Below, in pieces: positions 55,835 through 56,664 of a stretch of DNA of 64,000 nt (positions are counted from its first letter, which is position 1; the number at the start of each line of letters is the position of its first letter). Source of the stretch: a phage; the NCBI GenBank assembly GCA_019338205.1, contig GCA_019338205.1_4761.1, one strand, 5' to 3'. The translations under genes were made by a program, and so were the position numbers. Below the pieces are notes generated by a model. That model saw only the letters and a list, made by a program, of their open reading frames with translations. It ran no database searches and was not told where the DNA came from.

Positions 55835-56029
55835 ATGAAAGTTTATACCAATAGCAATAAAGGACAAGATATTACGCCCGGAAAGATGTATGATTTTACC
55901 CCGACACGAGACGACGAAAATCCACCGACAATCGGTTACATCAAAGATGATATAGGTTATCGTATTACGATACTTCTTGATGGTGGATGTTCTCATCTTC
56001 GCGGTGATAAATGGGAGTTAGTACCATGA
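55835..56029 (+). CDS. small protein, paralog family member 1 (64 aa)
   Basis: Shares motif K.Y.FTP...GYIKDD.GY...L....C..L....W.L with the next two genes. Confidence 0.45.
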   Translation: MKVYTNSNKGQDITPGKMYDFTPTRDDENPPTIGYIKDDIGYRITILLDGGCSHLRGDKWELVP

Positions 56030-56271
56030 AATATGTAATGACACCTTATAGTAGTAGATCTTACATCACCCCAAATAAACTGTATAAGTTTACGCCAGAT
56101 GAAAGAATGTCTACCTACGGTTACATCAAAGATGATAAAGGATACAAACTTTTTATTTCTCTGAAAAGCTGTGCATACTTAGACGACCGTCCGTGGACAC
56201 TGATCGAAGAACCAAAACAACCTGAGAATAAAGGTCTTTGGAACGCAATTAAAAAAATCTTGAAAAAGTAG
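56026..56271 (+). CDS. small protein, paralog family member 2 (81 aa)
   Basis: ATGA overlap; RBS GGGAG; same motif family. Confidence 0.45.
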   Translation: MKYVMTPYSSRSYITPNKLYKFTPDERMSTYGYIKDDKGYKLFISLKSCAYLDDRPWTLIEEPKQPENKGLWNAIKKILKK

Positions 56272-56300
56272 TTGACACAACAAAACGGGGGTAGTAATAT
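56272..56300 (+). promoter_or_regulatory. early promoter cassette type II
   Basis: TTGACA; cggggg-tagtaatata-ccccc; leader ATCGAAACAAAGGAGTATTAAA-ATG. Confidence 0.5.
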
Positions 56301-56328
56301 ACCCCCATCGAAACAAAGGAGTATTAAA

Positions 56329-56664
56329 ATGAGTGTTAAAGAAGTATTTGTTTATACCGACTATGACGGGTGCGCCTATCTCACTGCTGGAAAACTTTAC
56401 CGTTGTGAGATTATTCATGGTACGCTAGGTCGAATTATGTGCGATCCTATTACAAAATTGTGGAAAAATAATCCTAGTGAGCGAGAAACTCTTATTAACC
56501 TAGATCCAGACGGTTGTTCACATTTGGACTATAGAAAATGGCATATCGTGACACATGATGCTTATGGTATTCATCTTGCTACTAAAGAATTAACTATAGA
56601 GAAATTCAAGTTTAAAGAAATCCCGTTTGTATACTGGATTCGCAATTTGTTTAAGAAAGGATAA
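56329..56664 (+). CDS. small protein, paralog family member 3 (111 aa)
   Basis: Contains ...DPDGCSHLDYRKWHIV... matching paralogs 1 and 2; track start 56272 is upstream in frame. Confidence 0.5.
   Translation: MSVKEVFVYTDYDGCAYLTAGKLYRCEIIHGTLGRIMCDPITKLWKNNPSERETLINLDPDGCSHLDYRKWHIVTHDAYGIHLATKELTIEKFKFKEIPFVYWIRNLFKKG

Follow-up and report, generated by a model that had tools for sequence, protein, structure and literature searches.

In a 64,000-nt stretch of phage DNA (contig GCA_019338205.1_4761.1 of assembly GCA_019338205.1; hereafter the window), three small consecutive genes, called A, B and C below, are on their sequence similarity ancient tandem duplicates of one phage-specific domain of about 60 residues, which is predicted to fold as an SH3-like small beta-barrel. 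All three lie on the + strand and encode proteins of 64 aa (A, 55835–56029), 81 aa (B, 56026–56271) and 111 aa (C, 56329–56664); these coordinates and sizes are correct as given in the original prediction, which had been made from the DNA letters and had described the genes as a triplet of paralogues. From predicted fold and homology, A would consist of the bare domain and B of the SH3-like core (codons 1–61) followed by a basic tail. In protein C, codons 1–77 would encode a divergent SH3-like core that includes an insertion of 10 residues, beyond which come an extra hairpin and then a basic hydrophobic tail. The 3 kb around the triplet share 96.5–97.6% identity with 59 phage records, all from Krischvirus, i.e., RB49-like T4-type coliphages (RB49, Phi1, JSE, GEC-3S, ELT3 and others), and the window itself is thus assigned to this genus. 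The best overall explanation, to which we give an even chance, is that these old SH3-like duplicates occupy an early hyperplastic slot and have an accessory role.

The similarity between the three proteins, assessed by pairwise alignment, shuffling and profile searches, is far above chance, in agreement with the paralogy first proposed. A and B are 49% identical (BLASTP E=1e-13), and their Smith-Waterman score of 113 compares with a shuffle mean of 23.6 (z=19.8), none of 3000 shuffles scoring as high. By the same measures C is a distant but significant relative of both, with BLASTP E values of 1e-4 against A and 5e-5 against B, and z scores of 7.3 (0 of 3000 shuffles as high) and 6.4 (1 of 3000), respectively. 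The profile of PHROG 6261 matches A (1.3e-28) and C (1.1e-37) from end to end and also recovers B (2.9e-5), and the profile of PHROG 15978 matches B from end to end (9.6e-44) and also recovers A (7.7e-8). These cross-matches join the two PHROGs, which are the own families of A, B and C and are themselves without assigned function, Pfam model or literature. The motif that had been described as common to the triplet, FTP...GYIKDD.GY, is complete in A and B alone, whereas C retains only the family core (T.GK.Y ... G.I..D ... I.L ... C.HL....W.IV) and has the insertion in addition. No further paralogue was detected within the window.

Structure prediction gave a confident SH3-like barrel for A. 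The AlphaFold2 model of this protein, computed from a 108-sequence alignment, has a predicted local distance difference test score (pLDDT) of 96.2 and the element order beta1, long RT-like loop, beta2, variable loop, beta3, tight distal turn, beta4, 3-10 helix and beta5. The model of C is weaker (pLDDT 68, about 78 in the core) and presents the same core with the extra hairpin and a low-confidence C-terminal helix. The modelled domain thus appears to share with canonical SH3 domains the five-stranded barrel order, the RT loop and the 3-10 helix before the last strand, but it would differ from them in its conserved residues, T-x-G-K-x-Y, C-A-H-L and W standing in the family against the ALYDY/WW/P-x-Y set of canonical domains. 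Foldseek searches of the PDB returned nothing below E 0.6 and only matches of fold class, and the family profile searched against all PDB sequences found only chance matches (E≥0.05). Among the predicted viral structures of BFVD, we recovered only members of the family and other uncharacterised proteins. At E≤1 none of the three proteins matched a Pfam family, SH3-clan profiles included, and NCBIfam likewise gave no match. A FosA assignment for C was rejected, the matches being spurious, 20 residues long and scoring 13–19 bits against cutoffs of at least 180.

The domain is widespread. An exhaustive hidden Markov model search of 1.84 billion cluster representatives detected 510 relatives at E≤1e-3; the family therefore numbers 510 or more clusters (50% identity), the majority of them stand-alone phage proteins of 58–70 aa. 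The figures given here for architecture refer to 210 retrieved members and those for residue conservation to 108 aligned members. Most of the retrieved proteins (135 of 210) have at most 75 aa, and four (P0019, P0020, P0021 and P0142) carry two or three tandem copies of the domain in a single polypeptide. In longer proteins with a single domain, this domain is N-terminal in 25 of 27 cases and is followed by diverse extensions, mostly without known identity; the recognisable fusion partners are DUF3850 (5e-16 and 4e-21), a Z-alpha domain (1e-4) and, below threshold, a Tad2-like sequence. Cultured phages that are unrelated to one another also encode members, for example Vibrio phages helene, eugene and the F-series, Klebsiella phage HHU1, Pectobacterium phage MA13 and Morganella phage Henu15, always annotated as hypothetical protein. 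Two columns, Y19 and W60, are invariant, and T14, K17, I36, D39, G41, C52 (otherwise Ser, in 14 members) and H54 are conserved at 87–95%. The resulting signature, T-x-G-K-x-Y ... I-x-D-D-x-G ... C-[AS]-H-L ... W-x-[VIL]-[VI], is complete in A; the allele of B found in the window (B1, see below) has Y for H, and C has G-K-L-Y, C-S-H-L and W-H-I-V but a degenerate DDxG.

Several members of the family merit separate mention. Seven of them (P0053, P0087, P0107, P0127, P0139, P0144 and P0159) are fused to the same unannotated C-terminal module, PKTWGEMTDAEKGALLLA ... YRIKPEP, which has no Pfam match. A metagenomic protein of 111 aa, P0018, joins the first 28 residues of C to an MraZ-like sequence (PF02381) and is most likely an assembly chimera. 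On metagenomic contigs with Mu-F/terminase genes, a member lies beside terminase and portal genes (L007, 3908–4189; L020, 4001–4339; L022, 4001–4189); the L007 member has the opposite orientation, in a moron-like position. A search of IMG/VR for further loci, made with a 10-sequence alignment, yielded three. No recurrent gene neighbour was found across four metagenomic phages, Vibrio phage F100 and locus L007.

In RB49, the counterparts of A, B and C are RB49p097, RB49p096 and RB49p095, annotated as hypothetical proteins and flanked by nrdC.11 (nucleotidyltransferase) and regB. The same order is present in the window, where vs.6, nrdC.11, A, B, C and regB are followed downstream by vs.1 and vs. 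The gene nrdC.11 (55115–55813, +) encodes an RlaP-like nucleotidyltransferase (Pfam PF10127 at 2.3e-14, in agreement with the RB49 annotation) and probably heads a transcription unit shared with A and B, since the + strand has no terminator-like site between nrdC.11 and A. A and B are translationally coupled through an ATGA overlap (56026–56029), in which the start codon of B, from which its 81 aa are counted, overlaps the stop codon of A. Each of the three genes has a GGAG in its Shine-Dalgarno (SD) sequence, at 55822–55825 for A, at 56014–56017 for B (within the 3′ end of A) and at 56318–56321 for C, all on the + strand. In T4, the endoribonuclease RegB cuts GGAG within the SD sequences of early genes (PMC3014915), and we infer that the motif of A could be cleaved by RegB in the same manner. 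The 3′ end of C (KFKFKEIPFVYWIRNLFKKG, 56602–56664, +) runs into the ribosome-binding site of regB (56669–57091, +; Pfam PF10715 at 1.9e-48). The SD sequence of regB itself (56659–56668) reads GGAT in the window and in RB49 and GGAG in SFHK24 and in a divergent lineage described below; the GGAU of the RB49 regB SD is known, and RegB has been reported to cleave it nonetheless (PMC3014915).

A promoter of its own had been proposed for C, and a putative one is present. The cassette that precedes the gene (56272–56306, +) is of a published kind, called PeSL (early promoter plus stem-loop), and has a −35 box TTGACA at 56272–56277, directly 3′ of the TAG stop codon of B, a 17-nt spacer and a −10 box TAATAT at 56295–56300, i.e., 10 of 12 positions of the sigma-70 consensus. 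A stem-loop (GGGGGTA/GTAATA/TACCCCC, 56287–56306; −15.3 kcal/mol as RNA, z −2.67) overlaps the −10 box, and the GEC-3S record annotates the cassette as a promoter. In Arbiol et al. 2010 (PMC2839356), PeSLs are described as composite elements of the hyperplastic regions of RB49 and phi1, and a stem-loop over the −10 box as one of their commonest subclasses; as far as the paper was searched, we found no mention of the A-B-C locus. All components of the PeSL plus ORFan cassettes described there are present before C (upstream stop codon, sigma-70 promoter, polyG/polyC stem-loop, SD and ATG). In contrast to those cassettes, the variation here consists in gene cores being replaced between conserved flanks, not in whole PeSL-bounded open reading frames (ORFs) being gained or lost. 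The PeSL promoter and the GGAG in each SD sequence suggest that A, B and C are expressed early.

A near-identical PeSL is located at 48411–48445, about 7.9 kb away and in direct orientation, and a related one at 50222. The common sequence of the 48411/56272 pair is GTTGACA...AAACGGGGGTAGTAA[G/T]ATACCCCC. Recombination between nearby PeSLs can excise mini-circles, as Arbiol et al. showed, and this pair is a candidate for such an event.

The triplet is an old one, carried by 59 of 59 Krischvirus records, with a copy number of three in every genome, and also by a divergent metagenomic lineage; the local expansion of a gene family, as which it was first described, is not supported as a recent event. 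Over 12 genomes, the gene-wide ratios of nonsynonymous to synonymous substitution rates (dN/dS) are 0.23 for A, 0.24 for B and 0.14 for C, compared with 0.03–0.10 for the neighbours nrdC.11, regB, vs.1 and vs. The three genes are under purifying selection, somewhat relaxed with respect to these neighbours, and the C protein is 95–100% identical across the genus. Such values do not support pervasive positive selection; none exceeded 1, either gene-wide or in the most variable block (0.13 for the B core). Of the diversifying selection that the original prediction had invoked, what stands is the divergence of the A and B cores and the existence of two classes of B, against low dN/dS values and a near-invariant C.

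The differences between genomes are concentrated in these two cores. Between the window and RB49, 70 of the 104 mismatches counted in 55000–58000 fall in 55850–56199, and 46 of these 70 in the 150 nt of the B core. B exists in two allele classes without intermediates, B1, which the window carries (10 of the 59 records), and B2 (the other 49). Their cores are saturated at synonymous sites (proportion of differing synonymous sites, pS, 0.69; synonymous divergence, dS, about 1.9), with a proportion of differing nonsynonymous sites (pN) of 0.22 and a dN/dS of 0.13, while their tails are far less changed (pS 0.18); within each class dN/dS is 0.20–0.22. This dimorphism could reflect balancing or frequency-dependent selection or, equally, the import of alleles by recombination. 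A has two mid-gene alleles, IKDDIGY and IEDDAGF, and all four combinations of the A (A1, A2) and B (B1, B2) alleles were found, indicating that the alleles reassort. In JSE, the B protein (L014, 1194–1463) has 89 aa, its last residues being altered and eight more added (…KKNLEKVVDTHDRG), so that the amphipathic tail is changed.

Traces of exchange between the paralogues themselves were also detected. A 20-nt exact repeat, CGGTTACATCAAAGATGATA, occurs on the + strand at 55933–55952, where it encodes GYIKDD in A, and at 56118–56137 in B. Only phages that combine A1 with B1 have it, and when codons were resampled with the proteins held constant, a tract of this length arose in 0.8% of the controls. 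In the metagenomic protein P0002, a chimera of A and B, the junction coincides with this tract (copy 2). Together, the repeat and the chimera are marks left by gene conversion and by unequal crossing-over among the paralogues.

The divergent metagenomic lineage keeps the whole synteny and the PeSL. Its A, B and C proteins are 75%, 61% and 44% identical to those of the window, against 84–93% for nrdC.11, regB, vs.1 and vs, and 78% for vs.6. In this lineage the core of C is unrecognisable as DNA and regB otherwise has a pS of 0.55, yet hardly a nucleotide differs over the last ~65 nt of C and the first codons of regB (window 56602–56700, L015 4540–4645). This conserved 3′ end of C could be a leader or translational-control element of regB, or else a recombination flank; variable cores between conserved flanks would allow cassettes to be replaced by homologous recombination.

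What could these proteins do? The RT loop and the 3-10 helix region form the ligand face of canonical SH3 domains. In the model of A the conserved residues are located in the RT-like loop and beta2, the distal turn, the 3-10 helix and beta5, and those outside the turn would map, by analogy, to the ligand-face region. We therefore propose, as a reading that falls somewhat short of an even chance, that A, B and C serve early in infection as accessory factors without enzymatic activity, each docking onto a host or phage protein. A and B would be read, probably, from the nrdC.11 transcript, and C lies behind the PeSL. The putative docking face would be formed by T14, G16, K17 and Y19 (RT-loop/beta2), C52-x-H54-L55 (3-10 helix) and W60. 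The basic amphipathic tails may target B and C to the membrane or to a partner: the C-terminal tail of B (PKQPENKGLWNAIKKILKK, also GLWNAIKKILKK; 56209–56268, +), a putative basic amphipathic helix with a net charge of +5, has a hydrophobic moment of 0.69 that is matched by only 1.4% of shuffles, and the distant members P0022 and P0033 have amphipathic tails of the same kind. The three copies might cooperate on a single multivalent target or complex, an idea that comes from the relatives that fuse two or three copies in one polypeptide in other phages. The acidic character of the family (median pI, i.e., isoelectric point, 4.7; net negative charge in 81% of members) argues for proteins rather than nucleic acids as the general ligands. 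Small early genes located in a hyperplastic slot, with unrelated genes in T4, fit accessory functions, and host takeover or counter-defence would be the most plausible biological role.

A number of observations weigh against such docking factors. The argument for a binding face rests on analogy with SH3 topology, and each B allele lacks one of the conserved residues, His being replaced by Tyr in B1 and Lys by Thr in B2. B is also exceptional in being basic (pI 9.5), which departs from the family. The tail of C is weakly amphipathic, its moment being reached by 12–40% of shuffles, and its conservation may reflect a constraint exerted by regB at the nucleotide level instead of a constraint on the protein. 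Gene contexts elsewhere are heterogeneous, with nucleotide metabolism in one case and the vicinity of terminase and portal genes in others, and a few fusions join the domain to nucleic-acid-related domains. No experiment, characterised homologue or conserved neighbour links the family to a function.

The alternative that survives best, although we consider it unlikely, is that the genes serve counter-defence or host range and that an arms race with host immunity, through positive diversifying selection, drove them to duplicate and diverge. Divergence within the 3-kb region does peak in the 350 nt of the A and B cores, the B classes are deep in genomes that are otherwise 95–99% identical, B alleles differ at surface positions conserved in the family, and dN/dS is two to eight times that of the neighbours. 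The closest solved phage protein, Gp54 of phage Bas11 (PDB 9axb), is likewise a non-essential, stand-alone small barrel of 64–66 aa. It triggers the defence protein CapRel-SJ46 and is described as an unusual six-stranded barrel, and its authors suspect an anti-defence activity (PMC11578894). Gp54 differs from our proteins in sequence, however, with 6% identity and no match of the family profile to its PDB sequence at E≤10, and we found no evidence of an interaction of CapRel with A, B or C. One relative shows a weak Tad2-like match (E 8e-4, below the Pfam cutoff), but PADLOC matched none of the three proteins at E≤1, no anti-defence family was among their Pfam and NCBIfam matches, and searches of the literature with the RB49 locus tags and PHROG identifiers found nothing. 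More directly, dN/dS is well below 1 everywhere, both between and within the B classes, C is almost unchanged across the genus, copy number is constant at three, and the saturation of synonymous sites in B points to old imports or balanced alleles and not to recent adaptive bursts. A broader proposal, to which we also assign a low probability, is that the family forms a very widespread and hitherto unrecognised class of early effectors that bind and neutralise a conserved host protein, e.g., an immune or stress component; in Krischvirus the triplet would then work as a multivalent set, and its A and B alleles would be under balancing selection exerted by polymorphic hosts.

It is doubtful that the three proteins are instead nucleic-acid-binding barrels, in the style of Sm, Tudor, KOW or Pif1 2B domains, that modulate early mRNA or RNA repair together with RegB and the RlaP-type neighbour. 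The 4-nt gap between C and regB is found in all relatives, their junction is conserved at the nucleotide level over deep lineages, and the product of the upstream neighbour belongs to a nucleotidyltransferase family labelled 'RNA repair pathway'. The Z-alpha fusion noted above (which scores above the Pfam cutoff), the fusions to DUF3850 (PHROG 986, 'RNA-binding protein') and the basic B protein point in the same direction, as does the presence of the SH3-like domain of the Pif1 helicase bound to single-stranded DNA among the weak top Foldseek matches. Those structural matches are not significant, however, the family is mainly acidic, the fusion partners are diverse and mostly of no known identity, and adjacency to regB or to an RlaP-like gene is absent from the other phages examined.

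The number of conserved polar residues is unusually high for 60 aa (T14, K17, Y19, D39, C52 with its Ser-only replacement, and H54), as would be expected of a minimal enzyme or of a metal or small-molecule binder acting through Cys/Ser-x-His, Asp-Asp and Lys. Such an activity seems very improbable to us: DDxG sits in the distal beta-turn, where conserved residues are commonly structural, the Cys and His are two residues apart within the 3-10 helix, B alleles tolerate the loss of the Lys or the His, and Pfam, NCBIfam and PDB searches detected no similarity to any enzyme family. That the genes are functionless ORFan cargo shuffled by PeSLs, as the hyperplastic region, with PeSL cassettes known to mobilise ORFans, and the absence of the genes from T4 might suggest, is hardly credible and largely refuted by conservation, given purifying selection on all three genes, their retention in 59 of 59 genomes and in the divergent lineage, and a family of at least 510 clusters with strongly conserved residues.

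The slot between vs.6/nrdC.11 and regB is early and hyperplastic. In T4, the same slot (vs.6 ... regB) is occupied by vs.5, vs.4 and vs.3, which are equal in number to the triplet and of similar sizes (58, 88 and 92 aa) but have no detectable homology to the family (profile E 0.34–2.2 in a search of 11 proteins). The gene vs.6 of the window (54612–55028) is a homologue of T4 vs.6 and encodes a GrcA/YfiD-like autonomous glycyl-radical cofactor (Pfam Gly_radical, 1.5e-16 over residues 78–119), with an unrelated N-terminal half. Genes for HNH homing endonucleases are inserted between vs.6 and nrdC.11 in JK32 (L003, 171–764) and JSE (L014, 1–269) and are missing from the window, RB49 and GEC-3S. 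In GenBank, C is labelled 'endoribonuclease' or 'RegB' in JK32 (L003, 2001–2339), G2248 (L004, 1530–1865) and Skers (L013, 1501–1839). We rejected this label as annotation spill-over because C has no match to REGB_T4 and G2248 gives the same label to vs.1.

The genes described here already figured as hypothetical in the annotation of dozens of genomes, and the promoter element had been published; the recognition of their paralogy, of their fold, of the size of the family and of the allelic structure is new. The finding is real yet fairly ordinary for a variable early region of a T4-type phage. As it stands, it mainly documents how the hyperplastic regions of these phages evolve, with old tandem duplicates kept by purifying selection while their cores are exchanged, in the form of short allelic cassettes, within flanks that stay conserved. 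If the role proposed for A, B and C proves true, a large family of tiny 'hypothetical' proteins would acquire a name, a fold and a binding face open to experiment, and the RB49-like phages, which feature in phage-therapy collections, would be a convenient system for its study. Three natural paralogues, two B alleles and natural A-B chimeras are already at hand there for comparison.

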